A stretch of 64,000 nucleotides of DNA from a virus (Duplodnaviria > Caudoviricetes), in the IMG/VR virus record IMGVR_UViG_3300005611_000014, positions 6,080 through 70,079 of that record. One strand, 5' to 3'. Under the pieces are notes generated by a model. That model saw nothing but the letters and a program-made list of their open reading frames with translations. It was not told where the DNA came from and made no database searches. Positions 27,597 to 46,700 of the stretch are shown piece by piece (positions within the stretch are counted from its first letter, which is position 1; each line of letters starts with the position of its first letter). The position numbers and the translations under genes were made by a program.

Positions 27597-29732
27597 TTAT
27601 TTAAGTTTAGATATGCTTTCTTTTAGTGCAGCTAATGCCATATTAGCTCTTGCTTGTTCCCCTTGCTTTTCTAACTCCCTAGCTTGAGTGGTTCCTGTAC
27701 GTTGTTCTACAAAATCCAAATCAAGTTTATCTGCGGTACTGCTTAACATTTTCTGTTTAGCTTGCTCTGTTCCTGCTTTAGTTTGGTTAAGTATAGCAGT
27801 AGATTGAGACTCGTAAGCTTTTCCTGATATTTGCTGTATCTGTGCTTTAAGTAATTCTACTTCTAGCATAGCTTTTTCCTGCTCTATAGGATCAGGTTGA
27901 GGCTGGTACATTTTAATCTTTTTAGACAACTCTGGCATTTTACGCAAATCTGCTATTTCCGCTAAAACCAGTTGTATCATTTCTAAGCCTAGTGTTTGCC
28001 CGGTAGTTTGTAGCATGAAAGCCAATTGTTCCGCTTTAGCATTATCTGTTTCAGCCGTACTAATAGTCAGTCGTATATCAATAGATCCTGCTAAATCTTC
28101 ACTGTCTATCTGTTCAAACTCTTCATTAGTTATACGTACTACTTCTGGTTCATCTAAAAATACAGCATTCATCGCTGTAAATTGTCTACCTACCTCTATA
28201 ATACCCTCTGCTAAACGTAAAAGGATTTCTAGGTCACGTTTACTGGTGGCATCAAGTGCACTACGAACACCAGTAGCAGTATTACCTAATGCTCCACCGC
28301 TTATACCATTATGGAAAGCTTTTACTCCGGTAAGTCCTTCTGCTTCGTTGTTTTGGATATTGAGCATATATTCAGCAGAACGAGGAATATCAGCAAACTT
28401 ATGAATAAAGAAAGCTCTTTCAGGATGCGTATTCGGGTTAAATTCATAATCCTCTCCTGCTTTGTACCTTTTAAGGTTTGTGTAATCTAGAGCATCTTTG
28501 GCTACACCTCGTTGACCGTTGGCATTTTTAGCCATTAAATCAACCATACCTCTAGTAACAGCCCCAATTACTTTTTGATTATCTTCAAGTAATTCTCCAT
28601 CAGGCTCTCCATAAACAGAGTCCTCTACAGGAAGATAAGGAACCACAACAAAAGGTAATTTGCCGTGAGGATATGGATTGTCTGCCAAACGAATTAATAC
28701 ATCTCCAACAAAACTAGCAACGATAGGTTTAGTTACGCCTGAACCATCTATATCCCAGTAACCCCAATACTCATGTACTACTATTTTCTTTCTAGGTTTA
28801 TCCTTAAACATAAAGCTAGAAGGATTAGCTAATTCTGTCGTGCTTGCACTAAGAGGAGAAGCGTTATCTATATTTATATATTCCAAGTTTGAATATATAC
28901 CTGCCTCTTGTAAGGCACTTAGTGAAGACTCAAACTGATCAATAATAAAATTAGCTTTTGTATAATCCCCTTCACAAGTTGGATCAATAATAACATTACG
29001 CAGTGGTCTAATTTCAGCAGTAGGATGGTTAGCTATTACCGTTACTTTGTCTACTTCCTGTTCTCCTATTTGTACAGGAATATACGGTACACCGTCTGCC
29101 ATAGATAACTGTATAGCATCTACAACATATTTATCTTGCTTACGTTCAAAAGTAATAGGATCAGCTTGGTAAGCTTGTATTACTTCTTCTAAATACGCTA
29201 TATATTGTTCGTCATCAGTTTCTTCAAACTGGTAAATAGGTTCTATTACCTTCTCTACTTTATCTTTATATACCCAGCCTGTTTTAATAATACTTGTTCC
29301 TTTATTAACAGCACTTCTTACATACTTATTAATAAAAGGTACTTTACGTAATTTATTATTAAACTGGTGATTAAGAACTAATTCATTCTGTTTAGCTGCA
29401 CGTACATCTTCGTAAGTAACAGGATCTGCTTTGAAGATATTAACGCTACTTAAGAAAGGTTCAGATAAAGCAGAGTATCTCCATTCTGCCTGCTTACGTA
29501 TAAGCTTAGGTTGAATAGTGGATTTATTTTTAGGTATTTTTACTTCAGCAGAAAGTGTACCTTTTAAATTTTCTTCCCACTTAACGACTTTAGAAACCAC
29601 GTTACTGTGATCTGCTTCAGCAGAAGTTAAATCTGCTTTTAAATCTGTAAGAGCTGGCGGATTATTCCACCCAGTAGGATGTATCGCAGGAGCTTGCTCT
29701 AACCGTTTATCTTTATTTAAAGGTTTTGACAC
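27597..29732 (-). CDS. Portal protein (N4 gp59-like)
   Basis: PKLIRKQAEWRYSALSEPFL, EYWGYWDIDGSG, LPFVVVPYLPVEDSVYGEPDGELLEDNQKVIGAVTRGMVDLM. Confidence 0.93.
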   Translation of the reverse strand: MSKPLNKDKRLEQAPAIHPTGWNNPPALTDLKADLTSAEADHSNVVSKVVKWEENLKGTLSAEVKIPKNKSTIQPKLIRKQAEWRYSALSEPFLSSVNIFKADPVTYEDVRAAKQNELVLNHQFNNKLRKVPFINKYVRSAVNKGTSIIKTGWVYKDKVEKVIEPIYQFEETDDEQYIAYLEEVIQAYQADPITFERKQDKYVVDAIQLSMADGVPYIPVQIGEQEVDKVTVIANHPTAEIRPLRNVIIDPTCEGDYTKANFIIDQFESSLSALQEAGIYSNLEYINIDNASPLSASTTELANPSSFMFKDKPRKKIVVHEYWGYWDIDGSGVTKPIVASFVGDVLIRLADNPYPHGKLPFVVVPYLPVEDSVYGEPDGELLEDNQKVIGAVTRGMVDLMAKNANGQRGVAKDALDYTNLKRYKAGEDYEFNPNTHPERAFFIHKFADIPRSAEYMLNIQNNEAEGLTGVKAFHNGISGGALGNTATGVRSALDATSKRDLEILLRLAEGIIEVGRQFTAMNAVFLDEPEVVRITNEEFEQIDSEDLAGSIDIRLTISTAETDNAKAEQLAFMLQTTGQTLGLEMIQLVLAEIADLRKMPELSKKIKMYQPQPDPIEQEKAMLEVELLKAQIQQISGKAYESQSTAILNQTKAGTEQAKQKMLSSTADKLDLDFVEQRTGTTQARELEKQGEQARANMALAALKESISKLK

Positions 29733-30045: not shown

Positions 30046-33000
30046 TTAGTACTTTGTCCAACTATTATACTGTAGATGTCTACTTTCTAGCGGTAAGTAT
30101 AGATGATTAAGGGAACTTATAACAACATCAGGTAACTCTATTGTAACTATTACGGTAGCTACAGTAGCCGCAATGGTTTGTACTATTGATGCATCCGTAC
30201 TGCTTATAAAGTCTAAGTATGCGGCAGTACCTGCACCTATAACGTCTGCACTACTGCTATCATTGGCCGCATGTATAGGTATATTCTTATCTGTTTCTAA
30301 ATTTTGACTAGTACTGGTATCTATGGCTGGTACTAAAGTAGCGTAGAGTGTGCCGGGAGATAAGGTAAATGTAACTACTCTTGCTGCACTCACATCTACA
30401 GCAGCATCTAGCAAAATAAGTTGCCCTATGTTAGCAGTAAAAGCCTCACTGTTACCTACTTCTAGTGCAGATGTAAGAGATATGTCTACTGAACCAAGAG
30501 AAGTAATTAAACTTGCTGCAGTACTTGTATCTGTACTTGGGCTTATAGCTCTAACTAAGTCACTAGCTAGATAAGCAGATATGCTAGTTTCTATAGAAGA
30601 ACCAAGATCAACATATAAATCAGCAGGTGCATCTATGATAGTCACACTGGCTGTTCGCGTAACAGTTACGCCATCACCGCGCGTGGCTGTAATAGTAATC
30701 GGATATGTGCCTACTGCTAAGCCCAACATATTATCTACTTCGCTTGTTGCAAATCGTAATACACTTTCTGTTGCCGTAACTACACTACCTTCCCCGGACG
30801 TAATGGCTACATTGCCACCAGTGTTTGTAACATTGTAAGTATCTGCGGCTAGGCCATTAATGTAATAGTTGACCGCATCTGTATTAATTAATCCGGAAAT
30901 ATCAAAGCTAAGACCGGTTAAAGGAACAAGCGGATTTTTGGCAAAAACTAAACAGTGCCAAGCGTTCTGTAGGTGTAGCAGTACCCCTTGTGCATTTACG
31001 CCAGCATCAAAGAGAACTTCGGTATCGGGTACAACCACTGCACCTGTGTCGCCAACAGCCAGAACAGAAACAAAGGCATTCTCTATTGCAGGAGTAACCG
31101 CTTCTGTTTCAATATGCCATTTACGTTGATTGCTCGGCATATCAGCTTGAGAAGCGCCGCTCCATAGCATTGATTCATCTACAATCGTATGGGTTAGTGA
31201 CGCATCAGATAGCATCTTAAGTTGCATCTCTTGACCTGCATCAGAGGCAACATAATATCCATTTACCAAAGTAGGCTGTGTTTGGAAATGTTGAATGTGC
31301 TTAACAAAGCGAGTGTAGTTACCTCCCCCATGTGCTTTGTATTGAACCAGATCAGCAACTTGTGTTGGGTCAGTGATGGTGTGGTCATAAACTATCAACA
31401 TATCCTGACCGATTAAGGCCAATTGACGTGTTACTAAATCTGCATAGTTTGTGCCATAGTACCCTGACATATTGTAGGCGTCTGCTGCTTCCCAAGCATG
31501 GAAAATATAGTCCGTACTTTGGTGAACGTGTGTCAGTGTGCCATTATCAACCGGGCGAAGTGTCGGACTTGAACGTCCATCTTCTGCGTTTTCAATTAAT
31601 AAGGTATTGGCTGCTGGCCCCGAATCCGCCGTATTTCCATAACCTATTGCTGCTTTACTTAACCAAACACCTTTTCTGGCTAAGTTAAAAGAAAGCACAT
31701 CGGATGGTTCCTGATGATCAACTTTAAAAGCTGCCGCCCAACCAAAATACTGAGTAGCATCGTTTGTCCAGTCTGTTCTGGCCGCAATAAAGCCCGTTCC
31801 GTCTGCCGCCCAAATGGTATCTTTATTTAGAGCAGAAGGTGATTGTCCTGCCTCCCCTGTCTCGAATAACAAACGGAAGATGCCGGTATAGCTTGAGTCA
31901 TTTGGCGGTGTAATTTGAGATAACCAATAGTTACCTAGCGCTTTTGTATCAGCATCGGTACTTGCGGTCATTAGAAACAACATGGTGTTGTAGTATCGTG
32001 CATCAGACAGATCAACATAATCTGACATGGCTTGCACTTGACCGTAAGCGTTTAAGTCCGTGAAGCCAGCTAAGGTATTGTGAACAATGCCCTCAACTAA
32101 CTCGGTAATTATTGTCTGAGAATAGGTATCGCTAAGGTTCTCACGTCCGACTAAATACAGCTCACCAACATGCTGCATAGTGCCGATAGAGTAATCACGT
32201 CCTTCGCCCCACATACCGCCATCAAAGACACCATTAAGAATGCCATCAAATAGCTCTACCTGAGTAAAGTCGGCAATCCATGTAGAAAGCGTAGGTGCAT
32301 AAGCATCCCCCTCACTTTCCAAAATTGCCAAAATCATATTGAGATTACCTGCTAAGCTAGTTACCTCATCAGTGTCTTCTGACCTGAATGAACCACTATT
32401 ATCAACATAATCTATCCAATACTGTGCCCATGTAACGAAGTTAGCAATAATGGTGGTACGTTCACCAGAGGTAAACTCATCACGCATCCAACTGTAGAAC
32501 ATACAGGCCCAAACACAGCCTGTTCTAAAACCATTACGTGAAGTATATCCACCTAAGTCGCCACCGACCCAGCCCCCTGCACCACCATTGTTATATTCGT
32601 CATTAAACAGACTAATACCGAAATCACGATAAGCCGTGTTTGGAGTAAGCGTGTGTGCTAAGGCGTACGCACAGGCGAACTCCCACCGATTGTAAGGTGA
32701 GCCATTAAGGTAAGTATCACAGCGTCCAATTAAATTGTCGTATATGGTTGAATCACTAGCTACCCGTGACTCAATGGCAGCTAGTCGGGTGCTCGATAAG
32801 AACAACTTACTATTTAATGTACCAACTACGTCTGCTGTTGGCCCCCACTCACCATCGTATATTCGGTATGTCGCTGAACCCCCTGCGCCTGATAACGCTT
32901 CGACTAAACCTGTCGCAATATCAAACGTCACATTGTTTATATCTGTGACATGTACCCACTGACCTACGCTCGCACCATCATTAGCATAAACACCGTCTGG

Positions 33001-33894
33001 GTGAATAGATGTAATCTGCCCATAGAGATGCCCTGCCTCTGGTTGAATTTGGATTGTCGTAGTGCCCGTACTCGTCCCATCATTTAAAGTTAAAACAATA
33101 TCACTCAAAAACGTATGAATTGGGTAAGGGTCTGTAGTTTTAAATGTAACTGGATCAATTACATCTACAGTAACTACCGAACCTGTATCGCTGACAATAT
33201 TCCAATCACCTGCCGTACTGCTTACCGATGTAATTGCGCCTGTAGCATTACTGTATGTAATTGCAAGTTGGCTGTTGGCTGTTGGCGTAGCGGTAGAAAT
33301 GCTATTTACAGTTAAGGATGCAACTGTAGATGTGCTAACACTATTTACATAAAAACCAACCTGGTTAAACTCTATTTCGCCCGTTACGTTTGCAGGGGTA
33401 TCGTAGTGCGTTGTTGTTCCTGTTGGCTCTTGCCCTGTGCCAACAGATGAACCGTTTAAGAATAATTCCCATGCGCCTGAACTGTTTCGAGTAACGCGAA
33501 AAATGTTGGCTGTGTTATTTAAAGTAATTGAAGCATCTGCTGGGCCAATAGTATTCTGAAAAGAGCCATAATTTACGTCTACAAATGACACGTTAAAGGA
33601 CGCACCGGTTCTATCGCCACCTGACGCCTGACCAGAGTTTACTCTAATTCGGCATCGAGGATGTGCCGTTAAACGAGGCAACTCTATAAACAAATTTTGA
33701 TAGTCTGATTGCGCTTCAGCTTCAAAGGTAAAGTCAAGGGCTGCGAAATCGTCATTATTAAGTGTTCCAGAAATCGCTACGAGAGTCCCTGTACTTAAAT
33801 CGACGCGATCATTGGTATCGTCTAGGGTGGCTGCACTTCCACCCCATCTTGAGTCTAAACTGGCTTGATCAAATAAATCTATAAAAGTAGGCAT
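30046..33894 (-). CDS. Multidomain protein: LamG-like N-terminus, heparinase II/III-like (alpha/alpha toroid plus beta-sandwich) polysaccharide lyase fold, C-terminal DTSTA repeats
   Basis: ACMFYSWMRDEFTSGERTTI, GGMWGEGRDY, GTGFIAARTDW, DHQEPSDVLSFNLARKGVWL and AANTLLI match the heparinase II/III-like pattern by eye. Confidence 0.65.
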   Translation of the reverse strand: MPTFIDLFDQASLDSRWGGSAATLDDTNDRVDLSTGTLVAISGTLNNDDFAALDFTFEAEAQSDYQNLFIELPRLTAHPRCRIRVNSGQASGGDRTGASFNVSFVDVNYGSFQNTIGPADASITLNNTANIFRVTRNSSGAWELFLNGSSVGTGQEPTGTTTHYDTPANVTGEIEFNQVGFYVNSVSTSTVASLTVNSISTATPTANSQLAITYSNATGAITSVSSTAGDWNIVSDTGSVVTVDVIDPVTFKTTDPYPIHTFLSDIVLTLNDGTSTGTTTIQIQPEAGHLYGQITSIHPDGVYANDGASVGQWVHVTDINNVTFDIATGLVEALSGAGGSATYRIYDGEWGPTADVVGTLNSKLFLSSTRLAAIESRVASDSTIYDNLIGRCDTYLNGSPYNRWEFACAYALAHTLTPNTAYRDFGISLFNDEYNNGGAGGWVGGDLGGYTSRNGFRTGCVWACMFYSWMRDEFTSGERTTIIANFVTWAQYWIDYVDNSGSFRSEDTDEVTSLAGNLNMILAILESEGDAYAPTLSTWIADFTQVELFDGILNGVFDGGMWGEGRDYSIGTMQHVGELYLVGRENLSDTYSQTIITELVEGIVHNTLAGFTDLNAYGQVQAMSDYVDLSDARYYNTMLFLMTASTDADTKALGNYWLSQITPPNDSSYTGIFRLLFETGEAGQSPSALNKDTIWAADGTGFIAARTDWTNDATQYFGWAAAFKVDHQEPSDVLSFNLARKGVWLSKAAIGYGNTADSGPAANTLLIENAEDGRSSPTLRPVDNGTLTHVHQSTDYIFHAWEAADAYNMSGYYGTNYADLVTRQLALIGQDMLIVYDHTITDPTQVADLVQYKAHGGGNYTRFVKHIQHFQTQPTLVNGYYVASDAGQEMQLKMLSDASLTHTIVDESMLWSGASQADMPSNQRKWHIETEAVTPAIENAFVSVLAVGDTGAVVVPDTEVLFDAGVNAQGVLLHLQNAWHCLVFAKNPLVPLTGLSFDISGLINTDAVNYYINGLAADTYNVTNTGGNVAITSGEGSVVTATESVLRFATSEVDNMLGLAVGTYPITITATRGDGVTVTRTASVTIIDAPADLYVDLGSSIETSISAYLASDLVRAISPSTDTSTAASLITSLGSVDISLTSALEVGNSEAFTANIGQLILLDAAVDVSAARVVTFTLSPGTLYATLVPAIDTSTSQNLETDKNIPIHAANDSSSADVIGAGTAAYLDFISSTDASIVQTIAATVATVIVTIELPDVVISSLNHLYLPLESRHLQYNSWTKY

Positions 33895-36800
33895 TATGAA
33901 TCCTCCCTTAAAATTCTATTCCAAGTCCTTACTGAGTTTGAGCGATTTTGCCAGTTCCAGAGTCTTGGTGTGTTAGATATAGCGGCACATGTAGCATTCG
34001 TATATCCTGTAATAATATTATTTATTCTATTCAATAGCTTTGCTTTATTGGTAGAATTTGACTCGAATTTATAGGCTAAAGCTAAAGGCAGTACAGTTTC
34101 AATGTTATGACTATCTGAATACCAAGGATACCAATCGTCACTTGCTAATGTAGCATCATCAGCATAAGCACTGGTGAAATAGACCAAATCTGTACTCGTT
34201 GAGCCTGTTGTATTACATCCATTTGCTCTAGGATTAATACCAACAAAAGCAGTTTTTCTATCGTAAGTTGCGCCATTAAAAGTTGTAGTGAATCCATGAT
34301 TTTCTATAGCATTACCTAATAATCTAAGCATTTCAGGCACATCAGTATTCCCCGTTACGTGGTACGCTTGCCACAAAAAGTCTGCTATATTTTCAGACAT
34401 CCAAGCCGAGAATGCCCTATCATTTGTATCACCAAGAGCTTGAGAGCCTTCACTTTCCGCACCTTCATGGACATTAAAGCTATGCGTAAAACCACCGCTT
34501 TTAGGAGTCCAACCATTTGCAATATCCCAAGCTTTTTCTGTTTGTTGCATATCCTTTAAAGAAGCAATTCGCTCATTTAGATGGCTTAAGATAGTCACAT
34601 CGCCTGTAATTTCATAAGCAACGACCTCAGCCAAGCCAGCTAGACCTGCACCACGCTCTGTGAAGCCTTCTGTCTCTGAATTATACAAATCTCTAGTGCC
34701 ATATTGATTCCAACCTAAGTCAGCTTGTAATGCCATTTCATTAATTAGACTGTTATCCCATTGTGATTTATCACCTACTAAAGCTAGAGCCAATTTAGCT
34801 TGTTGTGGTGCTATGTATTTACCATCAGCACAAGACGTTGATCCATAAGTCCAACAACCATCACCTCCTGCTGCTGTAGGTGCTGTACCATCATTTCTGA
34901 CATAAGTGAAGTAGAACTGTTTAGATAGAAAAGCTTCTTTTAAAAACTTCACATCGCCTGTAGTCATATAGGCTTTAAACATTGCACTTGATCTATCAAA
35001 CAACCAGTTCGCATTTGTTGACGTTGAAAAGTTTAACCCACCAGCCCAATTATCAAATTGGTCTGATTGAAAAGTTCTATGTGAATCTGGACTTACAGGG
35101 GCTGGGTCAAAAGGTGGTACTATTTCACTATCAGCAAGATACTGAGTGTCATGTAGGGCGAATATTCTAGGATATAAATGATTATTCTTATCTGCTCCTG
35201 CTGCTACCCAACCATTTGAATGTGGCTGCTCTGTGAGTCTAGCTGTACTGAAACCAGTGTCATCAATAGTGACTGTTACATTACCACCAGTCATATCAAC
35301 ATTTTGAAGTTGAATGGTCGCTGATCGAATAGAGTTATCAGACCACCACGTTAATCCGTCTTCAACATAAGCTGCTACTTCTGAGCCACCAATACTAACT
35401 TTGATTTCATCTAAGCTAGTTACTTCGCTTTCTGCGAAAGGCAATGCAAAGGTTACAAGCTCTGTGGCTGTTGGTGTTACTGCACTATCAGCAACTAATG
35501 TCATCGTTGTACTTACATCATTTGTAGCGACATAAGTGGCTGGTGGTTTAGTCGCACCTTCGTCAATCGTTTGCACTTGTCCTGTAGCGTATATTGCTAC
35601 GTTTCGATCCACTGATACATTAGTGAATTGAACTAATGCACCCCCGTTAGGTAACTGCATATCAATATCAACTAAAGCATTATTACCCAAACCACAGTGT
35701 TCATGCGTAGCACCATATTGTTCAGCAACATATATTTCACGAGTACAAAGAATGTTTGGTGTTCCAGCATCTTTAACTGTTACGCGAGTGTGAAGACCTT
35801 CATAAGTAGGCGCACCTCTAACAACAAAGCCAAGCCAATTATTACTATAGCTGCCAGTATTTCTCCAAACTGCAATAGTGTCTTTATTACTTGATCGTTG
35901 AGCGTTTGAGCTGATTAAATCAAGCAAACCATCATTATCATAATCACCATGCGCTACAACAGTCTTAGATGCACCTCCACTAGCAGCAACTCTCCCATCT
36001 GTCGTACTTAGTACGTTATCACAAGCAATAGTTTCCTTAGTCCAATTTCCTGTGCCCCCATTCATGATCAAACCACAAGGCGCATCAAAACCACCTCCGG
36101 TTAGCCAATCCGCACGTATGTCATCTAAACCATCATTGTTAAAATCCCCTACGCCTAAACCAGCATAAGTAGTTTGATACGTGAGAGAGTTCAGGCTTAA
36201 ACCAGCTAATTCAGTAGTTGATACATCAGTAAATACACCTGATCCATTGTTTTGTAATAACCATATACCATCTCCATCTAAATCAGCATCAGCTAGGTCA
36301 ATTGCATTATTGCCACCTTTCTCAACACGTATCTTGAAGATGTCCATATCCCCATCATTGTCATAGTCAATTGGTACTTGTTGATGTGGGTTGCTGTGTT
36401 GCGCGTCATCTGTTGAGTATGACGTATCAAACATTGAAGCACTTGCGGTGAAGTTTCCTTCAACGCCTGCTTGCATTCCACCCGCACTACCAAACCAGAT
36501 AATGTTAAGCTGTGGATTAACGATGTCAGGATATGAGTCATTGTTTGCATCGAATACAAGAGAAGTAGACCAGGCTCGCGTTAAGTTTGGCTCATTCAAT
36601 GTCGCCCAATCCGGTGTCCAAGCTACTGTCTTCTCCGGCCAATCATATATGGCCCCGTAGTCGCTCGCATCAACCGGCTTATTGAGTACATTATCATTAA
36701 AACCAACACCGACTAGAGGCGCACCAATCAACTCAATATCACCATCACCATCAAAATCAATAGGTAGGCAGCGATCTACTGTATATAAGCAACCTGTAGT

Positions 36801-37565
36801 CCCTGTGTAGGTTCCATCTCCGTCATACGTTGCAGCCAATGAAGGGTTGCCATCTACATCACCACCTAAAATATCAACATCGTTATCACCATCCAAATCA
36901 AACAAGAGTGTCCAGCTTGTTATGCGTCTATTCGCTGGGCCTGTTGCTGAATAATCATTATCTAAATAGGTATATGTACCCTGACAAACGCCACCAACAT
37001 TATCTTGAATATATATACCATCAGGATCATCAGTAGCGTGTGAAGTGATGAAGAAATCAAGACACATATCATTATTTAAATGTGCAACGTCAGCTTCAAA
37101 AGGAGCCACTACTGGACTTTGGCCTACTTCTAAATCTGGCATAATAGACAGCGTTGTCTCAGCAAATGCAATCGCACCACCTGCGCTATTAACATAGACT
37201 TGTCGAGTTGCTGTATCTGTTAATGATCCACTATCAGTACACGTATATGTAGCAACATAAGTGCCCGATGAACTCATGTTCAGAGATGGGCTAAATGTTG
37301 GTGCGGGAACTGTAATTGCGCCGTCTTCGCTATCCGTACACGTTGCGCCAAGCTCGCTGTAAGTATCACCTACTGTGTAAGTGACATTAGAGCCATTCAA
37401 TATGATCACTGGAGGTTGGTTACTTTGAGGCTCAGGTATACATGAACCATGCCCAAATTTGCCATTTCCACAATCCACATTGAATACAAATATGTCATTC
37501 TGCGGAATAACCACCGCAAGCGCAGGAATCGAAAGAAGCATAAAAAGCAAAGTGCGTAAAATCAT
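33894..37565 (-). CDS. Signal-peptide protein: DUF5011-type Ig domain, FG-GAP/VCBS beta-propeller, ASPIC/UnbV domain, and a PcRGLX/YetA-like barrel plus (alpha/alpha) barrel
   Basis: MILRTLLFMLLSIPALA signal. PPVIILNG...TYSELGATCTDSEDG. Seven DxDxDGxxD-type repeats. NNWLGFVVRG...HCGLG. VTFALPFAE...WSDNSIRS. Helical C-terminal domain (MFKAYMTTGDVKFLKEA). Confidence 0.7.
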   Translation of the reverse strand: MILRTLLFMLLSIPALAVVIPQNDIFVFNVDCGNGKFGHGSCIPEPQSNQPPVIILNGSNVTYTVGDTYSELGATCTDSEDGAITVPAPTFSPSLNMSSSGTYVATYTCTDSGSLTDTATRQVYVNSAGGAIAFAETTLSIMPDLEVGQSPVVAPFEADVAHLNNDMCLDFFITSHATDDPDGIYIQDNVGGVCQGTYTYLDNDYSATGPANRRITSWTLLFDLDGDNDVDILGGDVDGNPSLAATYDGDGTYTGTTGCLYTVDRCLPIDFDGDGDIELIGAPLVGVGFNDNVLNKPVDASDYGAIYDWPEKTVAWTPDWATLNEPNLTRAWSTSLVFDANNDSYPDIVNPQLNIIWFGSAGGMQAGVEGNFTASASMFDTSYSTDDAQHSNPHQQVPIDYDNDGDMDIFKIRVEKGGNNAIDLADADLDGDGIWLLQNNGSGVFTDVSTTELAGLSLNSLTYQTTYAGLGVGDFNNDGLDDIRADWLTGGGFDAPCGLIMNGGTGNWTKETIACDNVLSTTDGRVAASGGASKTVVAHGDYDNDGLLDLISSNAQRSSNKDTIAVWRNTGSYSNNWLGFVVRGAPTYEGLHTRVTVKDAGTPNILCTREIYVAEQYGATHEHCGLGNNALVDIDMQLPNGGALVQFTNVSVDRNVAIYATGQVQTIDEGATKPPATYVATNDVSTTMTLVADSAVTPTATELVTFALPFAESEVTSLDEIKVSIGGSEVAAYVEDGLTWWSDNSIRSATIQLQNVDMTGGNVTVTIDDTGFSTARLTEQPHSNGWVAAGADKNNHLYPRIFALHDTQYLADSEIVPPFDPAPVSPDSHRTFQSDQFDNWAGGLNFSTSTNANWLFDRSSAMFKAYMTTGDVKFLKEAFLSKQFYFTYVRNDGTAPTAAGGDGCWTYGSTSCADGKYIAPQQAKLALALVGDKSQWDNSLINEMALQADLGWNQYGTRDLYNSETEGFTERGAGLAGLAEVVAYEITGDVTILSHLNERIASLKDMQQTEKAWDIANGWTPKSGGFTHSFNVHEGAESEGSQALGDTNDRAFSAWMSENIADFLWQAYHVTGNTDVPEMLRLLGNAIENHGFTTTFNGATYDRKTAFVGINPRANGCNTTGSTSTDLVYFTSAYADDATLASDDWYPWYSDSHNIETVLPLALAYKFESNSTNKAKLLNRINNIITGYTNATCAAISNTPRLWNWQNRSNSVRTWNRILREDS

Positions 37566-37966
37566 TACTGTTGTACTCCGAAAGTGATTTCAGGAGTGAT
37601 GACTGTGGCATCTAAAGCAAGATCACGGTTTGTAATTTGATCAGACACTAACAACAGATTTGAGTCATCATATAATGCTACCCACAAATCTACTGAGCCA
37701 CCTGATACGGCTACGTCTATTGCGCTATTGTGTTCGAGACTTGGGATAGTTAAGTTTCTACTATTAGCATTGATGCCGTTACTTAACGTAATCGTTCCGC
37801 TATTAATAGTTAAAGGGGCACTGATACGTTTTCCTCCTGCGCCACTCAAAGAGGTACAATCAGCCAATGAAGTAGGTTCGGTTTGAAAAATAGCGTAATT
37901 GACCGTAGCAGCACTAATCGTGACTAAACCATTATCAATTACATGGGCAGATATTTTCGTGGTCAT
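37565..37966 (-). CDS. Hypothetical cassette protein (probably virion-associated)
   Basis: Likely starts at ATG 37966 (MTTKISAHVIDNGL) behind GAGAGGAC; the track start at 37996 is upstream. TAATG coupling to the next gene. Confidence 0.6.
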   Translation of the reverse strand: MTTKISAHVIDNGLVTISAATVNYAIFQTEPTSLADCTSLSGAGGKRISAPLTINSGTITLSNGINANSRNLTIPSLEHNSAIDVAVSGGSVDLWVALYDDSNLLLVSDQITNRDLALDATVITPEITFGVQQ

Positions 37967-37968
37967 AT

Positions 37969-38589
37969 TTAAGTCCTCTCTACAGCTTGCATACAAAAGT
38001 AGGTGGACACATGTGTATACACAGAAGCCGTACCTTCATTGGTATCGGAAACAAAAACCTCGAAATAATCCCCAGGTATGACATCCAATATCGGGGATAC
38101 TAGGCATACTGATTTTTCAGAGTCACCGTCTTCTCCTGATTCCCAGCCAGCAGCTACGCCTTTACCTGTTTCTCCGTTCTTCCTGATACTAAACAGTTTC
38201 GTGACTTCCGATGGTAAAAGAACCGAAGTACATGAGAAAGTAAGTTGCACCCGTGTAACATTGGCGGGGACAGTTAATCTGGTAGGATTGCCTACTGACC
38301 AAATACTATCTGTATCTATACTCACAGAACTCCATGCTAAAGGTAGCCCTCCGCTATTACCTGTTAAATCAATATCTAGGGTAGTCGCCCCAGCATTTAG
38401 GTGGGTAACAGCACATGTAACGGCATCAGTTACGCGATCATTCGCAGTTTGGCCTAGCAATAAACTTGAAACTTCGTTTAAGGTTACAACTCGCGTATTT
38501 CCACCAGACTCAACAGCGATATAATCAGCACCCGTTAAGGTATATGCACCTTGAGTCCCTTGATGTACAGTAAAAGAAGACGCACTCAT
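37969..38589 (-). CDS. C1q/TNF-like jelly-roll domain protein, paralogue of 39773-40396
   Basis: LPLAWSSVSIDTDSIW...TRLTVPANVTRVQLT and LVSPILDVIPGDYFEVFV. Confidence 0.55.
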   Translation of the reverse strand: MSASSFTVHQGTQGAYTLTGADYIAVESGGNTRVVTLNEVSSLLLGQTANDRVTDAVTCAVTHLNAGATTLDIDLTGNSGGLPLAWSSVSIDTDSIWSVGNPTRLTVPANVTRVQLTFSCTSVLLPSEVTKLFSIRKNGETGKGVAAGWESGEDGDSEKSVCLVSPILDVIPGDYFEVFVSDTNEGTASVYTHVSTYFCMQAVERT

Positions 38590-39776
38590 AATGGTATAAG
38601 CCCCGTAATTGGTTCAAATAAAATTTCAGGATCAAGATAAGCTAAACGATTAGTAGAACCTACCATGTTATAGTTAGCAGGAGTCACAATAGCCGGTGTA
38701 CTATTAGCATGTAATTTATCAATCACAGCGCGTATCTGAGTACGGGAAGTCAATCTTTGATAACCTTGAAGCATACAAGCAATGACTCCTGCGGCATAAG
38801 GTGAGGCGAAACTTGTACCCGACCACACCAGATAACCCCCGTAATACTTCATATATACACTCTGTCCGGGCGCATAAACATCCATAAGATCGCCAACCCC
38901 TGTAGCAAAAGCATCGAACAGCATAGGGTTATCTGCCGCACTCGAAGCACCTATAACTAAGTTATCAGGATCGGCATGACCAGGGTAAGGTAAACTATTA
39001 TTAGAAGCGTTATGGTTTTCCCGCCAATTACCTGCGGCTATACAACATATAATACCTGCATCATTTAGCGCCTCAAACCCTGCCTGTATGCCTGCATTTG
39101 GTGTACCAGAAGCGGATAGGTTAAATACGGCAGGTCGATTTGTAGCAGATCGACTATTATAATGAGCCAACGTTTGGTTAATAGCATTGATGACTAGCTC
39201 ATCTAAAGCAGTTCTATCACTAGGGTCATGCGTACAGTCCCAAATTAATGCTTTTCTGGCTAAACCTATCGTGTTACCCGCAGCGCAAGATGCTACCGAT
39301 GTTCCGTGTTTGGATAGGAAAGTAGGAGACCACCCGTCTGTACCGGGTACGACCCCTACACGCCCATTAAACTCATCTGGATCATCATATACACCTGAAT
39401 CACATATATATATATCTACCCCTTCGCCATCCCTACGAGACTCAAAGTTAGTAGTAATATTCTTAATAGGATGGTTTACACCAAATGGGTTTCTACGTCT
39501 AACTAAACGTGCTAAACCCCAAGCCCCTTGTTGTAAATCAACCGTATTCGCATCAACAATAATAGGAGAATTAACATAGGATAAATGCAATTTCCCGCAA
39601 GGGTCTATACTGGATATATAAGGTAAAGCAGCCAAAGGGAAATTATCTAACTCATGGGTAGTTATAAGGAACAATTTTGGAATATTTTCATATTCTTTAA
39701 AGCCAATAGACTTAGTATTAAGCTCCTTAATGAAGTCCTGTCTGTGCGTTTTATCTGTGAGTTTTACATAGATCAT
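38586..39776 (-). CDS. Subtilisin-like serine protease (peptidase S8) with a short N-terminal prodomain-like region
   Basis: Complete triad: IYICDSGV (Asp), KHGTSVASCAAG (His), SGTSFASPYAAG (Ser). Oxyanion Asn in IAAGN. Also FNLSASG and MDVYAPG. Confidence 0.92.
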   Translation of the reverse strand: MIYVKLTDKTHRQDFIKELNTKSIGFKEYENIPKLFLITTHELDNFPLAALPYISSIDPCGKLHLSYVNSPIIVDANTVDLQQGAWGLARLVRRRNPFGVNHPIKNITTNFESRRDGEGVDIYICDSGVYDDPDEFNGRVGVVPGTDGWSPTFLSKHGTSVASCAAGNTIGLARKALIWDCTHDPSDRTALDELVINAINQTLAHYNSRSATNRPAVFNLSASGTPNAGIQAGFEALNDAGIICCIAAGNWRENHNASNNSLPYPGHADPDNLVIGASSAADNPMLFDAFATGVGDLMDVYAPGQSVYMKYYGGYLVWSGTSFASPYAAGVIACMLQGYQRLTSRTQIRAVIDKLHANSTPAIVTPANYNMVGSTNRLAYLDPEILFEPITGLIPL

Positions 39777-40396
39777 ATATCTATCTGCTCCAATACCCGC
39801 ATACTAAAATGATTCCCTGTATTAGTAAAAATGGCTAAAGCCCTATTGTTTATGTTATCTACTGTTACCTCAAAATAGTCACCTTCTTGTACGGAGAGTA
39901 CAGGACTAACGAGTAACGTACTTAAACCAGAACAGCGAGAGGAAACAACCCCTTTCGTGTATTCACCGTTTTTTGTAATAGAAAACAGATAATCGAATGC
40001 GCCACCTGATATAGCCAAACAAGCAGTAAGTTGAACCTTTGTAGCCCCTCTAGGGACATTTAATCTTTTTGCTGCAACACCAGACCAGCAATTAGCTGTA
40101 TCTGTTATAACTTTACCCCATTGCAAAGGAATGCACGTTATAATCCCGTATGCAAAATAAGAAACAGAGGCATCCGTAGGATGTTCATTCGCTCGTTGTA
40201 GATTTAAAGATGCACCTTTAAAACCTTCAGAGGGTTGGACTATTTTAGTTTGACCATTAAGTAGCTTGTTCACGTCTGATAATGTCGCCACACATTCGCC
40301 AGAACCATCAGCGTACTCAACAGGTAGAATATCACTAAGGCTTGGTGAGAATACAGGCTGCGCCTGCCTAATAGTAGTTAAAGCCTTGTTTGTCAT
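39773..40396 (-). CDS. C1q/TNF-like jelly-roll domain protein, paralogue of 37969-38589
   Basis: IPLQWGKVITDTANCW...KRLNVPRGATKVQLT and LVSPVLSVQEGDYFEVTV. Confidence 0.55.
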   Translation of the reverse strand: MTNKALTTIRQAQPVFSPSLSDILPVEYADGSGECVATLSDVNKLLNGQTKIVQPSEGFKGASLNLQRANEHPTDASVSYFAYGIITCIPLQWGKVITDTANCWSGVAAKRLNVPRGATKVQLTACLAISGGAFDYLFSITKNGEYTKGVVSSRCSGLSTLLVSPVLSVQEGDYFEVTVDNINNRALAIFTNTGNHFSMRVLEQIDI

Positions 40397-41781
40397 AGAA
40401 TTTTAAACCCATCTGTACCAGTTATTTGCATATCTCCTGCTAATAACCAAGCTTGTGTTACAGTTAGTTCGTCCAGTTGTGATCTACCTAAACGGGAACC
40501 AAATGGAGCAATTCGCCACGAACCATTTTTGTTAATGGGGTAGTAAGTAGTACCGTTTATAGTTAATTCTATCTGTGCAGTACTGTCATTAAGTAAGCCG
40601 AACAAGTCAGTATTGTCATCCCCTGTTACAAGGTCAGGGAATATAATCTCGAATACATCGAGCGTCCCACCACCGGATTCCACACTAGATGCTAAGTCTG
40701 GGAGCGCGTTCGTAATATGCGCACTTGTCCATGCAGACCATTCGCTCGCGTCTGCGCCATTCTTACCTCGAACGCGCCATCTGAAATCAGTATGAGCAGG
40801 CCATGTTAAAGCCATTTGAGATTGTGATAGGTTAGTAAACGATGTCACCACATTGGTAATCAGATTTTCTACTTCCACGTCCCATAAATCAGGTGCTACT
40901 TCTCCCCCACCTCCTCCTGTAAGAGAAGCAGTTAAACTACTTACAGTACCCGTATCTATAGCTACAGTGAGAGAAAGATCAACACTACCTTCTAAAGAGA
41001 CAGTTATTGCTTCAGCAACACCTGTATCGCTCGTATTTATTAATGTGGCAGTAACAGGAGTGTTATCTGCAAGGCTCTGGAAACTTTGCCAGCCTGTCCA
41101 TGCACTTGTTTTACCTGCATCAGCACCTTGTACCCGCCACTCATAATCTGTGGATTGGTTTAAACCAGTTAAGGTATAAAAGGTATCCGTAATTCCATTG
41201 ACCGCCGTAGCACCTTGACCTACAACACGCCATTCCAGATTGTAGGTTGAAGGTGTTAAGGGCGTAGCAACATGTACTTCACGGATTGCCGTAGCTGTAT
41301 TACCTGCGGCATCTGTTACTTGATACTGTATTTGATAAATACCTTGGGTATTATTATCAACAGTACCCGAAGTACTAATAGAACCTGTTAAGTCGCCATC
41401 GGTATCATCTGTAGCTGTTGCACCAAGTTCTGTATACGTATCACCTATCGGTAAAAGATAAGGATTAGCGCCTGTTATAGTAATAACCGGATCAGTAGTA
41501 TCCGTAACAACCTGAGCCGTTAATGTACCTGCCGTACTGGTATCCGTGGCGGCTGTTAAAGAAACAAATTGATCCGTTGCAGCAGACGTAGTAAAAGTAG
41601 TCCATGCTGACCACGCAGACCATGATAATGCACCACTTGTATCATCTACTTGACGTACACGCCATTGATGTTCTTGACTACCTGCTAAACCAGTAACAGC
41701 ATACTCGGTAGGACTAATGCCCGTATACCGAGTTACGCTGCCGCCTGTTTCTTTTATCTCAACGTGATACGTATAGGCCAT
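40393..41781 (-). CDS. Ig/FN3 repeat protein: three truncated FN3-like repeats with WSxW motifs, one DUF5011-type Ig domain, and DTSTA repeats
   Basis: HQWRVRQ...WSAWSAWTTF, YEWRVQG...SAWTGWQSF, FRWRVRG...SEWSAWTS. Also DTTDPVITITGANPYLLPIGDTYTELGATATDDTDGDL. Confidence 0.8.
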   Translation of the reverse strand: MAYTYHVEIKETGGSVTRYTGISPTEYAVTGLAGSQEHQWRVRQVDDTSGALSWSAWSAWTTFTTSAATDQFVSLTAATDTSTAGTLTAQVVTDTTDPVITITGANPYLLPIGDTYTELGATATDDTDGDLTGSISTSGTVDNNTQGIYQIQYQVTDAAGNTATAIREVHVATPLTPSTYNLEWRVVGQGATAVNGITDTFYTLTGLNQSTDYEWRVQGADAGKTSAWTGWQSFQSLADNTPVTATLINTSDTGVAEAITVSLEGSVDLSLTVAIDTGTVSSLTASLTGGGGGEVAPDLWDVEVENLITNVVTSFTNLSQSQMALTWPAHTDFRWRVRGKNGADASEWSAWTSAHITNALPDLASSVESGGGTLDVFEIIFPDLVTGDDNTDLFGLLNDSTAQIELTINGTTYYPINKNGSWRIAPFGSRLGRSQLDELTVTQAWLLAGDMQITGTDGFKIL

Positions 41782-41784
41782 CTA

Positions 41785-42516
41785 TCAATCCCAGTTAAGC
41801 AACGCGCCACTCGATGTGATGCTTTGAGTTTGAAGATTGGTAGGTATGCTAACGGTTTGTTGAGCAGGTGCACTTGTAGGAGCAGCATCACCATTTGTAC
41901 CAATAGCCAAAATATTAAATAACATTTTCGATTGGTTCTGACCGTATTTAATAGCTGCAGGGTAGCCAGTTGCAGGCTGAGAGCCGTTGGTTATGGCTTC
42001 AAAGTTCCAAGTCCCCGGTTCATTTGAAATCAAGTCACTTGCATGTTGCCAAAAACGACCATAAACGTTATTACCTGAAATCCTACCTCTGAATCCAGTG
42101 TGATTAGCGAGATTGACATCGGGCGGTATCGTATCAGTAGTTGTTGTTGTATAGGTTCCCCACTTGTTTCGAGTAACCACACCTCCTAGGCTTTGATACA
42201 AAATAGCCCAAGACGGAGTAAAGCCTATAGAAAGTGAAGGCCGAAACGACATACCAATTGAAACTTGACTATCTACGCTTGATGCTGCGATTTGCTGTAA
42301 CATCAATATTTCACAATCAGCAACAGGAGCAATGTCATTGAATGCTACTTGTGCGTGATTACCGCTATTCACACTACTCTGGAAAAACTTACTACCGCCT
42401 ATATCTACTACAGATAAGGCAGCAGCACCATTAAGATACAAGGTGTAGTCGTAACCTAACGTTTCAATGTCGGTAGTAACTGCAAAATCTTCCGCATTAA
42501 GCCAGTACTGAGCCAT
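41785..42516 (-). CDS. Beta-sandwich (lectin-like) protein ending in the first strands of an FN3 domain
   Basis: Beta-rich body with FRGRISGNNVYGRFW...EPGTW. C-terminus PTNLQTQSITSSGALLNWD. Confidence 0.55.
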   Translation of the reverse strand: MAQYWLNAEDFAVTTDIETLGYDYTLYLNGAAALSVVDIGGSKFFQSSVNSGNHAQVAFNDIAPVADCEILMLQQIAASSVDSQVSIGMSFRPSLSIGFTPSWAILYQSLGGVVTRNKWGTYTTTTTDTIPPDVNLANHTGFRGRISGNNVYGRFWQHASDLISNEPGTWNFEAITNGSQPATGYPAAIKYGQNQSKMLFNILAIGTNGDAAPTSAPAQQTVSIPTNLQTQSITSSGALLNWD

Positions 42517-43051: not shown

Positions 43052-43537
43052 TTATTTTCTTTTTAAAGCTTTATATTTAGTCTTAAGTAACCCTATCATA
43101 TTTTTTTCTTTATAGGCTTCTAAAAACTGTTGCCTTGGTGCTGCTTTATCAGGTAAAGCCAAATGAACCCATGAATTAAACTCAAGTATACACTGATCTA
43201 CTTCTTTACTAAGTTTACTGCTTTTTATAAAGATAGCTAACTCGTATGGAGTTATACCTGTAGCTGTTATGTCTACAGCTAACCCTCGTAAGTGTGCAGA
43301 GTTACGTGCACCACCTAATATACGATTTAATTTTTTACTCCTAAAGCCGCTACTTATCTGTATATACACTTCCCTGTTATAGTAGTTACATAAACTATTA
43401 CGTAAATGCTGTAAAAAGAAAGCTAACTTAATAATATTAGTTGTTTGTGTAGTATTAGGGCTATTATTTATATTGTGCTTGATAGCAGTACGGGAGTCAG
43501 TAAACTCCTTCTTTGTGAAATTTGTAGTTATTCGCAT
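43052..43537 (-). CDS. Endolysin, peptidase M15 (M15_3, Zn-dependent)
   Basis: NFTKKEF, ISSGFRSKKLNRILGGARNSAHLRGLAVDI (His and Asp Zn ligands), and ILEFNSWVHLA. Confidence 0.9.
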   Translation of the reverse strand: MRITTNFTKKEFTDSRTAIKHNINNSPNTTQTTNIIKLAFFLQHLRNSLCNYYNREVYIQISSGFRSKKLNRILGGARNSAHLRGLAVDITATGITPYELAIFIKSSKLSKEVDQCILEFNSWVHLALPDKAAPRQQFLEAYKEKNMIGLLKTKYKALKRK

Positions 43538-43550
43538 TTAGCTGATTCCA

Positions 43551-43793
43551 TTAAGGGATAAATAAATATTTTACTCCACACTCATTTAAACCCCAACCGT
43601 ACTCTCGGTAAGGGATAGAGCTTCTATGTTCGCAGAATGTACTAAATCTACTCATCTTATATTCCCCGCCTAGTATGCCTATTGGATTTGGGGCGTAAAA
43701 TTCTGGCGCATCTTGTTTCTCTAGGTGCATAGATACACCTCCGTAAAAGGTGCAGCCTTGAAGCAATACTATCAGGAGTAATATTTTTTTCAT
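43551..43793 (-). CDS. Small lipoprotein
   Basis: MKKILLLIVLLQGC lipobox, followed by amphipathic beta-strands and a terminal KYLFIP. Confidence 0.7.
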   Translation of the reverse strand: MKKILLLIVLLQGCTFYGGVSMHLEKQDAPEFYAPNPIGILGGEYKMSRFSTFCEHRSSIPYREYGWGLNECGVKYLFIP

Positions 43794-46700
43794 TTATCTG
43801 ACCATCTTGATATACGTTTCATGTTCGCTCGCACCAGAGGTCGGAAACAATACTCGACCCAAAACACGCTCATCATCGCTGCTTGTCCATGTTACTAAAC
43901 CTTTGTCTAGGTACGTACAGACATTTTGCCCTATAGCTGATGCTCCATAGATTTTCACTTTAGATATTCCTGCCGTGCATACTAGACAAGCGTAATGTGT
44001 TGAGTCATAGGCGCTAACATCTATAGGGTAGAATAAATCTGCCATCTCAGAATCAGGTATTCCCCCTATAGGCATTACCTTTTGTATAACACCAAAATGC
44101 TTTATGTCATACGTGCCATCAGGTAAATCCAGTAAAATAATAGGCATATCCGCCGTATTGGAATCATCAATGCCTGCTGCAATACATACTCGGTATTGCG
44201 CCTCCCCTCGTCTAGCAGACGCAGTGGCTCCGGGTAAAGTATCTATAATAGATTGAGGTATAAGTCCTGCATGAATGCCTCTAAAGCTACCATAACCGCC
44301 ATTCCTTGCATTAAACGCTAAGCCGCCAATAGTCTGACCTAGAACACCTGTTCCGTAGTCACTACTCCCTTTCATGCCTTGCATTTTTCCGTAACCAATT
44401 ACACCTTGTCCTCCCCATCCTGTGCTTTGAGAATATATACCTGACTTATCTATTCCTACCGTAGATACAGCCAAACCTCTACCCTCATAGGTTCCGCTTC
44501 CTATGACAGCTCCGTAGGTGATGCCGCTTAAACTTACGTTACCTATTTTTATATTTTGTTCAACGCCATTGCCGCTATCCCAATATCCTTCAAGTGAATT
44601 GGTGATAGAGTTTATTACAACTCTTTCAACGGAACCGGAGGCAGTTTGCAATGTACTGCCTGTAATTGTGTTACCGCTTATCGTTCCACCTGTAATAGTA
44701 GGTGAAGAAATTGATGTATTGGCCTTAACGCTTGTTGCTTCAATCGTTCCTTTAATTTCAAGCGTTGTTCCGTTCCATGCCAGATAATTATTTGCGTCAC
44801 CATTCAGGTAAAAGAAACCTTGGTTATCCATATAGGATTGCCATTGGCTTCCATCATAGTAACCCAAGTGAGTAGCTGTAATATTCAGTCCTTGTGTTGT
44901 TTCAGGAACTAATTGGTTCGGATAACCTAGTAATTCCTCTATAGTAGGTTCACTGCCATCTATAAGGTCTATCCTAGGTCTAGCATAAAATACTTCCGTA
45001 CTAGCGTTTGCTGCTGAAAGATCTACCCCCATTTGAAGGGTAGTTGTACTAGCTTGAAATTTATAATCCCCTAAAGATACTCCTTTTGCTCCTGTAGATT
45101 TTTCATAAAAGGTCGTATTACCTGTGTAACTGTTGAGCGTGGTATCTTTAGAAAGTACAGTAGTTACCAGCAAACACCACTCATCTATAGGTAAACTGAC
45201 CCCTTGTAGTGCACCGATCCATGTATGATTAGATGCTGTTTGGATATTTGTAACAGGAGTATTTATTCTAAGTCTAACTTGTCCGCTAGATACTGTTCTT
45301 TTAGCCCAGATACTTAGCCTATAAGATTTTGTATTATTTACATTAATAGTAGGTGTTAAAAACCCACCTAAAGAAGACGATCCTGTATAAACCGTTTTCC
45401 ACAGTATTTCTTCTACATTATGTGGCCCATTACCTAGTACACGAGATTGATTAGAAGAGGAAGTAAGAAATACAAAGTCACCTATATCTCCTGTTTGTCC
45501 TGCTTCCCATATAGAAGAATCTATTAAGTTATTTAGTAACAATGTATCTGAAGGTTGACCATTTATATTACTACCCCATGTTGCGCCTACAGTTGCACCG
45601 TCTGCAATACCTGCAAGCTTTGATCCTTCAAGTGCATTAATAGTACCTATAGAAGTAGGTTTATCAGTTAAGTTACCATAACCGTTACCGCTTGTTATGG
45701 TGATTCCGCCTTTAAAAGTAGCTGAACCATCTGAATATACGGCAAACTTCGTATCACCACTTTGCACTACACTCATTAAAGCGGTTTTACTGTCTAGTGT
45801 TTTGGCTCCAAGTACAGCAGAAGCACCACCACTTGTAGCAGTTAATGTGCCCGCTACAGTAATATTACCTGCTGCAAGTGTTCCGCCTACAATAGTAGGA
45901 GCAGTAATTGTAGTACTTGCTGCAATACTGGTAGCAAGTATGTCTCCTCTTACAGAAAGCGTTGAACCATTCCAAATTAACGAATTAGTACTACTGCCAT
46001 TATTAAGGTAGAAATGCCCTGCATTATCCATGTAGGTACGCCAAGTACCTGCATCTAAGTAACCCATACGAGTATTACTAACAAATAACCCTGTACCGGA
46101 AGGAGTTTCTAAAAAAGCGGGAATAGCGTCTAAATTTACGCCCCACTCTGCACCAACTGTAGCATTATTTGCAGGCTTACCTGTTCCGCTTACTTGGGTT
46201 GCCCAATCTGCTGTACTTGCTGTAGCTAAAGCACCCTGTCCTACTATTTTGTTTGCATCAATTAAAGCATCTGCATAATCTGCTACAGAACCTGGAAAAG
46301 AATAGCCTGTTAAGCTGGAAGTAAAGGTTATTGACCAATTATCTGCCCAGTTACTTATAGCTTGGTTTAAGTAACTAGCTTGGAAGTCTCTAACAGTTAC
46401 GTTAGGGTATTCCCAAACAGTAGTAGTTTCACCTATAACTATGCAACACTTTCCGCTAGGGTTAATACCAAATCTAACGCGATTATCTGAAGCAGTAGAT
46501 CCAGTTATTTGAGCAAATGTGTTATCCCACCTAGACGTAGCAGTTTTATTGTATCCACCTACAGCTAGAGTTAACGATTCACCTGTAGCATAGTTATATA
46601 CATCCACAAACATACGCATCATAGTGTTTGTCCATCCTTGCGGAAGATTCACTACAATAACTCCGTTTACTGCTCCTCCTGTATAAATACTTGCTCCTAC

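Follow-up and report, generated by a model that had tools for sequence, protein, structure and literature searches.

A 64,000-nucleotide stretch of virus record IMGVR_UViG_3300005611_000014 (positions 6,080 to 70,079; hereafter the window), which is of marine origin and, judged by its gene set, an N4-like podophage, carries on its minus strand an open reading frame (33894-37565) for a 1223-residue protein, P0001, that is probably a non-virion enzyme, exported through Sec, which would bind and cleave the exopolysaccharide (EPS) of the host and be released at lysis. A probability of roughly 0.55 is given to this reading, which was reached from sequence and predicted structure. The best explanation of the gene's origin appears to be descent from an exported bacterial enzyme encoded within an EPS locus, followed by a career as cargo moving between unrelated phages. 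The product seems to be built for Sec export, as the initial annotation had proposed, since every phage homologue with a complete N terminus has a signal peptide and the bacterial homologues all begin with a signal of type I or of lipoprotein type. The matrix-degrading role suggested there likewise appears to be the best fit, the C-terminal domain having the fold of a glycan enzyme and 51-67% identity to a protein encoded within EPS loci (9-10 of 13 bacterial loci). The features described in the initial annotation hold up, and its interpretation is supported in part. The parts of the gene are as follows.

33894-37565, minus strand: whole gene, 1223 amino acids (P0001), an open frame with full-length homologues P0002-P0011 (44-80% identical)
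37576-37579, minus strand: GGAG ribosome-binding site, 10 nucleotides before the ATG, read from the sequence
37515-37565, minus strand: Sec-type signal peptide, residues 1-17, with Arg4 in the n-region, a hydrophobic core and A-L-A; predicted cleavage between A17 and V18
37410-37514, minus strand: linker, residues 18-52, with Cys32 and Cys42, each kept in 7 of the 8 homologues that cover it
37191-37397, minus strand: Bact_surface_Ig-like domain (PF16403, formerly DUF5011), residues 57-125; Pfam, 37.2 bits against a cut-off of 27
35856-37190, minus strand: FG-GAP beta-propeller of seven repeats, residues ~126-570; PF13517 (51.3 bits, cut-off 26.9), motif scan and fold match to CRTAC1
35571-35855, minus strand: ASPIC/UnbV-like beta-sandwich, residues ~571-665; all-beta in the AlphaFold2 (AF2) model, CRTAC1 alignment of 595 columns
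35151-35516, minus strand: beta-barrel like the first (RIFT-barrel) domain of PcRGLX/PL26, residues ~684-805; strands of the AF2 model, model residues 11-131
33897-35105, minus strand: (alpha/alpha)6 toroid, residues ~821-1223, presumed catalytic from VIA-align fold matches

The ATG overlaps the stop codon of the upstream gene (TAATG), follows the GGAG site at a distance of 10 nucleotides, and is preceded by only eight open codons (open frame of 1231 amino acids). A type I Sec signal is defined by a positive n-region, a hydrophobic core of 10-15 residues and small residues at -3/-1; residues 1-17 show this layout with Arg4, a hydrophobic core and A-L-A before V18, and the hydrophobicity of the N terminus (2.66) is the highest among the 27 minus-strand open reading frames of the late region. 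An equivalent signal with Ala at -1 begins each of the eight phage homologues that are complete at the N terminus, in divergent sequences; the retention of a signal of the same kind despite differing residues argues against a start downstream of it and for selection on export. The Sec-type signal of the initial annotation is retained. The second-highest hydrophobicity (2.51), and the only other strongly hydrophobic N terminus, is that of an 80-residue open reading frame directly upstream of the endolysin gene (43551-43793, minus strand), which begins MKKILLLIVLLQGC, a lipoprotein-type signal, and is a candidate spanin-like lysis component.

The paired cysteines noticed earlier in P0001 number 16 and fall by position into eight pairs, of which six are conserved, the least well kept of them in no fewer than 7 of 8 homologues and the best in 11 of 11; both Cys76 and Cys109 of the Ig domain are present in 10 of 10. 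Other late proteins contain 0-8 cysteines, most virion proteins 0-2, and the 3355-residue virion RNA polymerase none. The conserved cysteine pairs and the calcium-type loops of the propeller are traits of an extracytoplasmic product.

In the AF2 model of residues 675-1223 (pLDDT 93.7, pTM 0.94), a beta-barrel leads into an (alpha/alpha)6 toroid. In VIA-align comparisons the toroid matched YteR of family GH105 best (Z 20.4), followed by GH88 enzymes, AGE epimerases and PL26 (Z 17-20), and the PL26 enzyme PcRGLX (5xq3) was the sole structure aligned across both domains (Z 17.8, 409 residues), in agreement with the PL26-like barrel and (alpha/alpha) barrel that had been recognised in the translation. 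Foldseek comparison of the C-terminal model with the PDB gave weak and mixed matches (best E 2e-4); in line with the barrel, PL26 chains align to approximately 135 residues with 19-20% identity. Compared with the PDB by sequence and by profile, the C-terminal domain gave matches at chance level only (E 0.18-1.2). The PcRGLX_1st profile (PF19501) remained below threshold at residues ~697-764 (13.7 bits against 22.1) and gave no match at E ≤ 10 in the Pfam search; the barrel is the one place in the entire phage genome where it has a sub-threshold match. There was no Pfam match to the second (PF21345) or third (PF21346) domain of PL26, and the protein ends with the toroid, lacking a third domain; P0001 was not filed under PL26 because of these failed sequence criteria and the missing domain. 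The GH105 and GH88 Pfam profiles did not match P0001 either, its likeness to those families being one of fold (Z 18-20). Within the family to which the C-terminal domain belongs, weak Pfam matches were to PcRGLX_1st (3 of 40 members), GH127, and GH88 (one distant member, E 0.0023). Asp857, Asp932, His1033 and other polar residues are invariant throughout this family, down to 25-35% identity, and are kept in the phage copy. The family is rare, 225 of 1.84 billion cluster representatives belonging to it at E ≤ 1e-3, and neither Pfam nor NCBIfam has a model for it.

The N-terminal part has folds of a glycan-binding kind. Its DUF5011-type Ig domain is well above the Pfam cut-off, and the seven FG-GAP repeats of the initial annotation are borne out by PF13517, which matches up to six stretches, and by calcium-loop motifs, of which five with canonical Asp/Asn were found by scan and two degenerate ones (residues ~163-170 and ~222-232) by eye in the translation; the count of seven blades rests on these motifs and on a model with pLDDT of 69. 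That AF2 model (residues 18-683, pTM 0.73, moderate confidence) has murine CRTAC1 as its top Foldseek match (E 2e-16, the runner-up being at E 1e-7). The CRTAC1-like architecture proposed earlier has in its favour this match and PF07593 (UnbV_ASPIC) in homologues, where it is mostly weak or faint and exceeds the cut-off in the bacterial protein P0037 (25.5 bits against 23.4); the ASPIC/UnbV domain itself is upheld only as a likeness, the Pfam model having no match in P0001.

An exported protein of this kind might bind without cleaving, as a lectin or adhesin that attaches to EPS or surface glycans, for instance masking a receptor against superinfection or clumping cells. Its propeller resembles, by fold search, fungal lectins that bind GlcNAc, integrins and Bap1, a matrix protein of Vibrio; the Ig domain is in keeping with adhesion, and some proteins of the (alpha/alpha)6 fold, such as transcobalamin, are binding proteins. 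However, every one of the family-invariant polar residues is kept, the nearest folds are those of enzymes, and a processing enzyme is usual in EPS loci, for which WceF (below) is a precedent; a purely binding role is likewise considered unlikely, as is attachment to virions, weighed below.

The bacterial relatives link the enzyme to EPS synthesis loci. Those of the C-terminal domain belong to Oleiphilus, Colwellia, Saliniradius, Alishewanella, Alkalimonas and Tenacibaculum, and are much closer than the bacterial relatives of the propeller. The Colwellia protein P0018 has both modules in the reverse order, with the toroid domain first and then an FG-GAP region that is just 27% identical. In the 9-10 loci mentioned above, the gene lies inside one conserved Wzx/Wzy EPS synthesis locus, which comprises a CapK-like ligase, two GT4 glycosyltransferases, a deacetylase, a GT2 glycosyltransferase, a conserved protein of unknown function, Wzx and Wzy, and to which it is linked in Colwellia, Saliniradius, Oleiphilus, Alishewanella, Alkalimonas and Dokdonella; the locus of Saliniradius also contains an exosortase. 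Genes of the EPS locus resemble XrtA/PEP-CTERM-associated families, none of them above the NCBIfam cut-offs, and that assignment was set aside. A protein of 365-391 amino acids (L006:22815-23912 and L008:7798-8973, with matches in L007, L013, L014, L018, L020 and L021), 57-62% identical across the six genera with linkage, always lies within the EPS locus and has no Pfam or NCBIfam family.

The likeness of the folds to degraders of pectin or ulvan type (PL26, GH105 and PL11) and the source in marine metagenomes would also suit an auxiliary metabolic gene, whose product, an exported carbohydrate-active enzyme (CAZyme), would help the infected cell in the latent period to feed on polysaccharide from algae or plants outside it. 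The bacterial homologues, however, are in loci for EPS synthesis rather than in utilisation loci with transporters or sugar catabolism, and the phage gene is in a late operon beside lysis genes, where its expression would come too late to feed replication; this nutritional reading is quite improbable, and fits the evidence less well.

Phylogenetic analysis of the C-terminal domain places 8 of 11 phage-type proteins, including that of the window, in a well-supported clade beside 21 bacterial sequences. The eight are 48-80% identical to P0001 and have a fixed domain order that is the reverse of the bacterial one. The close homologues are from Gammaproteobacteria, except for that of Tenacibaculum amylolyticum (Bacteroidota; L015), a 60%-identical C-terminal domain that has no linked EPS genes nearby and may be due to cross-phylum transfer. 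The initial annotation had offered as an alternative that the gene was captured recently from a host and is not yet adapted; read in this way, it would have no role for the phage. In favour of this are the GC content of the gene (0.41, against 0.36 elsewhere in the window) and the identity of up to 67% between its C-terminal domain and bacterial genes. In bacteria, too, the genes have a higher GC content than their flanks, so amino acid composition explains part of the excess, which was set aside as proof of recent transfer. Moreover, the frame is intact, the conserved residues are kept, the gene is coupled to its neighbours, and its closest relative (80% identical) is in another type of phage. 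The supported phage clade, its fixed domain order and its occurrence in several unrelated backbones speak against recent capture, which is largely refuted and highly improbable; this reading, too, fits the evidence less well.

Descent from an EPS-locus enzyme followed by spread as phage cargo agrees with the distribution of the homologues. No homologue was found in isolated phages by tblastn of P0001 against 50,697 phage records, no PHROG family matched P0001, and a pattern scan of IMG/VR with the phage alignment produced 27 pattern matches of which none was confirmed. Ten full-length homologues were found in metagenomes, and the homologues occur patchily in at least four phage backbones besides the N4-like window (at least five in all); the N4-like phage, an SU10-like temperate phage, an HK97-like phage and a siphovirus-like contig have the protein with the same N-terminal region. 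The settings identified are as follows.

L003: temperate SU10-like phage with cI/Cro, DnaB and NinG
L004: HK97-like phage with NinB, holin, TerL and portal
L005: contig with Prim-Pol and an Sf6-type small terminase
L002: siphovirus-like contig with a tail-tip protein
L011, L012, L024 and L025: shorter phage-like contigs

In L003, L004 and L024 the gene is located 2-4 genes after DUF5675 or holin genes and outside any tail module, and in L003 and L004 it is just ahead of the terminase genes; on gene order, this is a cargo position and not a tail position. The closest relative of P0001 is in a setting of this kind, not in an N4-like phage. Of the traits of phage cargo (moron-like genes), patchy presence in unrelated phages was seen, and a promoter or terminator of its own was not. 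The next gene usually encodes a large Ig-rich or glycan-related protein, examples being one with He_PIG/HYR repeats, a SASA-type esterase with a LamG domain (L012:5273-7138) and a BNR sialidase-like protein (L025:5772-7556). The presence of the latter two near homologues suggests variable cargo clusters directed at glycans. The L003 homologue is followed by a 982-residue Ig-rich protein (L003:13629-16577), whose gene immediately precedes that of the small terminase. This protein ends in PF23148, the gp77 fibre-tail adaptor of podophage GP4 (53 bits), and is possibly a fibre whose gene lies apart from the tail module.

The window makes up most of a virus record of 70,079 bases with an estimated completeness of 94%. 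The nearest isolated phage is Pseudomonas phage LUZ7, whose portal protein is just 52% identical. The DNA polymerase, the primase and two small N4-type RNA polymerase subunits are encoded on the strand opposite to the late genes. Landmarks of the window and the partner of the gene are as follows.

8114-18181, minus strand: virion RNA polymerase, 3355 amino acids
24776-26098: major head protein
27597-29732: portal
30046-33894, minus strand: downstream gene of 1282 amino acids, context partner, without a signal peptide, translationally coupled by a one-base overlap
43052-43537: endolysin
50200-51843: large terminase

The gene of P0001 is on the late (minus) strand between the terminase and portal genes, downstream of the lysis genes, within approximately 19.7 kb that separate a gp67-like gene from the portal gene. 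In LUZ7 the terminase, gp67 and portal genes are adjacent and nothing resembling the gene of P0001 lies between them; therefore, the stretch between gp67 and portal in the window is variable and not part of the core. The initial annotation had placed the gene in a virion operon: its position on the late strand agrees with this, but the stretch is a variable, non-core one beside lysis genes. A block of overlapping genes (30046-42516, 12.5 kb) has a GC content of 0.42, compared to 0.36 in the remainder of the window, and has no relatives in the other phage loci except the gene of P0001 and one domain of its partner. The stop codon of the gene overlaps the start of this partner, of which residues ~199-356 are common to the proteins adjoining the L002 and L003 homologues. 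The idea that both genes form a strictly conserved cassette is weakened by the similarity of the partners being confined to approximately 150 residues and by the block genes being without relatives elsewhere; because so little of the partner is shared, the mobile unit is essentially the gene of P0001 alone. Neither P0001 nor its partner was matched in an NCBIfam search, and a heparinase II/III-like label on the partner is only a lead from a language model. A scan for promoters and terminators gave site counts no higher than expected from shuffled sequence, and the genes overlap, which does not support an independent transcription unit.

P0001 could instead be a receptor-binding depolymerase attached to the virion, either with its hydrophobic N terminus unused for export or as a periplasmic protein that joins particles after lysis. 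Judging from the gene order of N4 and G7C, this part of the genome holds the receptor-binding proteins in N4-like phages; the gene is tightly coupled to large neighbouring genes, the neighbour of the L003 homologue ends in the fibre-tail adaptor described above, and a 206-residue open reading frame nearby has a tail PHROG match. On the other hand, all eight complete homologues have the signal peptide and the product has extracytoplasmic traits; no virion-anchor domain, no PHROG match and no tblastn match among the 50,697 phage records was found; matches to tail proteins are already provided by a gene of 1890 amino acids (43794-49466); phages whose tails are unrelated share the N-terminal region; and the copies in L003, L004 and L024 are found just after lysis genes and not in a tail module. 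Attachment to the virion is considered unlikely. One form of it, in which the protein matures in the periplasm (with disulfides and calcium) and docks on finished particles after lysis through its Ig domain and the Ig-rich neighbour, is improbable when taken separately. Virions are not assembled in the periplasm; such docking, if true, would arm virions with an enzyme that is unable to fold in the cytoplasm, by a two-compartment assembly route that to our knowledge has no counterpart among tailed phages.

If P0001 is a soluble matrix enzyme, as preferred here, its export, substrate, chemistry and benefit to the phage can be inferred as follows. The protein would be translated late, within a long coupled operon, and its signal peptide would direct the chain through the Sec translocon into the periplasm, where disulfides would form and calcium would be loaded. 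The Ig domain and CRTAC1-like propeller would hold the glycan while the C-terminal barrel and (alpha/alpha)6 toroid cleave it, the target being the nascent or surface polymer of a Wzx/Wzy-type EPS locus. Cell lysis would free the soluble enzyme, which may thin the matrix around the burst cell, keep progeny from sticking to debris or capsule, and perhaps strip infected cells of the receptor, as the 'public good' that the initial annotation imagined.

Several points weigh against this reading. The protein could be assigned to no CAZy family by sequence, epimerases and proteins that are not enzymes also have the (alpha/alpha)6 fold, and the putative catalytic residues of P0001 are assigned to no known mechanism; the enzyme may be a lyase or a hydrolase. 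Sec by itself would take the protein no further than the periplasm of a Gram-negative host, and because the hydrophobic stretch runs on past A-L-A (V18-I20), the N terminus may remain uncleaved as a membrane anchor. Neighbours to which the gene is translationally coupled are possibly tail fibres, and the PF23148 adaptor in the neighbour of the L003 homologue makes a link to the virion possible.

Comparison with known systems shows where P0001 departs from each. PcRGLX/YetA of PL26 (5xq3) shares a RIFT-type beta-barrel followed by an (alpha/alpha)6 toroid, with a weak PcRGLX_1st signal at the right place, but is only 12% identical, its other profiles are below threshold or absent, its third domain is missing here, and P0001 has a signal peptide, an Ig domain and a propeller in the same chain as its barrel and toroid. 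The unsaturated uronyl hydrolases of GH105 and GH88 (YteR, 1nc5; UGL, 1vd5) and the AGE epimerases are the best matches of the toroid (Z 17-20.4 over approximately 300 residues), but are 7-12% identical, are single-domain cytoplasmic or periplasmic enzymes, and have no match at the sequence level. CRTAC1/ASPIC (9etn) has the FG-GAP calcium-type propeller followed by the UnbV/ASPIC sandwich, but is a matrix protein of animals, 14% identical (in an alignment to the model with pLDDT of 69), to which no toroid enzyme domain is attached.

Phage depolymerases are usually viewed as tail-borne beta-helix spikes that are made in the cytoplasm; P0001, in contrast to a virion-borne depolymerase or tailspike, has an export signal and no relatives among phage tail proteins (PHROG and tblastn searches). 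An analogue is WceF of Pantoea stewartii, an exported enzyme from an EPS synthesis cluster with phage relatives that attack the same polymer (PMC7949094). P0001 resembles it as an EPS-locus enzyme with an export signal and phage relatives, but WceF and its phage relatives are trimeric beta-helices, the phage versions being tailspikes without signals, whereas the fold here is a propeller plus a toroid and the export signal is kept in the phage copy. Soluble phage depolymerases that are released at lysis are known (reviewed in PMC5380687), and resemble P0001 as free enzymes that would degrade capsule or EPS around the burst; in that review their release is described as through lysis only, a signal peptide never being mentioned, whereas P0001 apparently passes through Sec first. 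No direct precedent was found in the literature for signal-peptide-bearing phage depolymerases or N4-like tail proteins, WceF being an analogue only. What appears to be new is that a probable matrix enzyme of a phage bears a Sec signal and combines a propeller with a toroid in place of a beta-helix, together with its probable descent from an EPS-locus enzyme and its apparent spread between unrelated phages.

A large enzyme that is not a beta-helix and apparently travels through the Sec system of the host suggests a second route of delivery, by which phages may reach the matrix from within the envelope in addition to attacking it from outside. The phage enzyme is also the one that bacteria use inside their own EPS locus. 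The C-terminal domain is a candidate new CAZyme family for which gene context indicates the likely substrate, and a possible source of enzymes against the polymers of marine biofilms.

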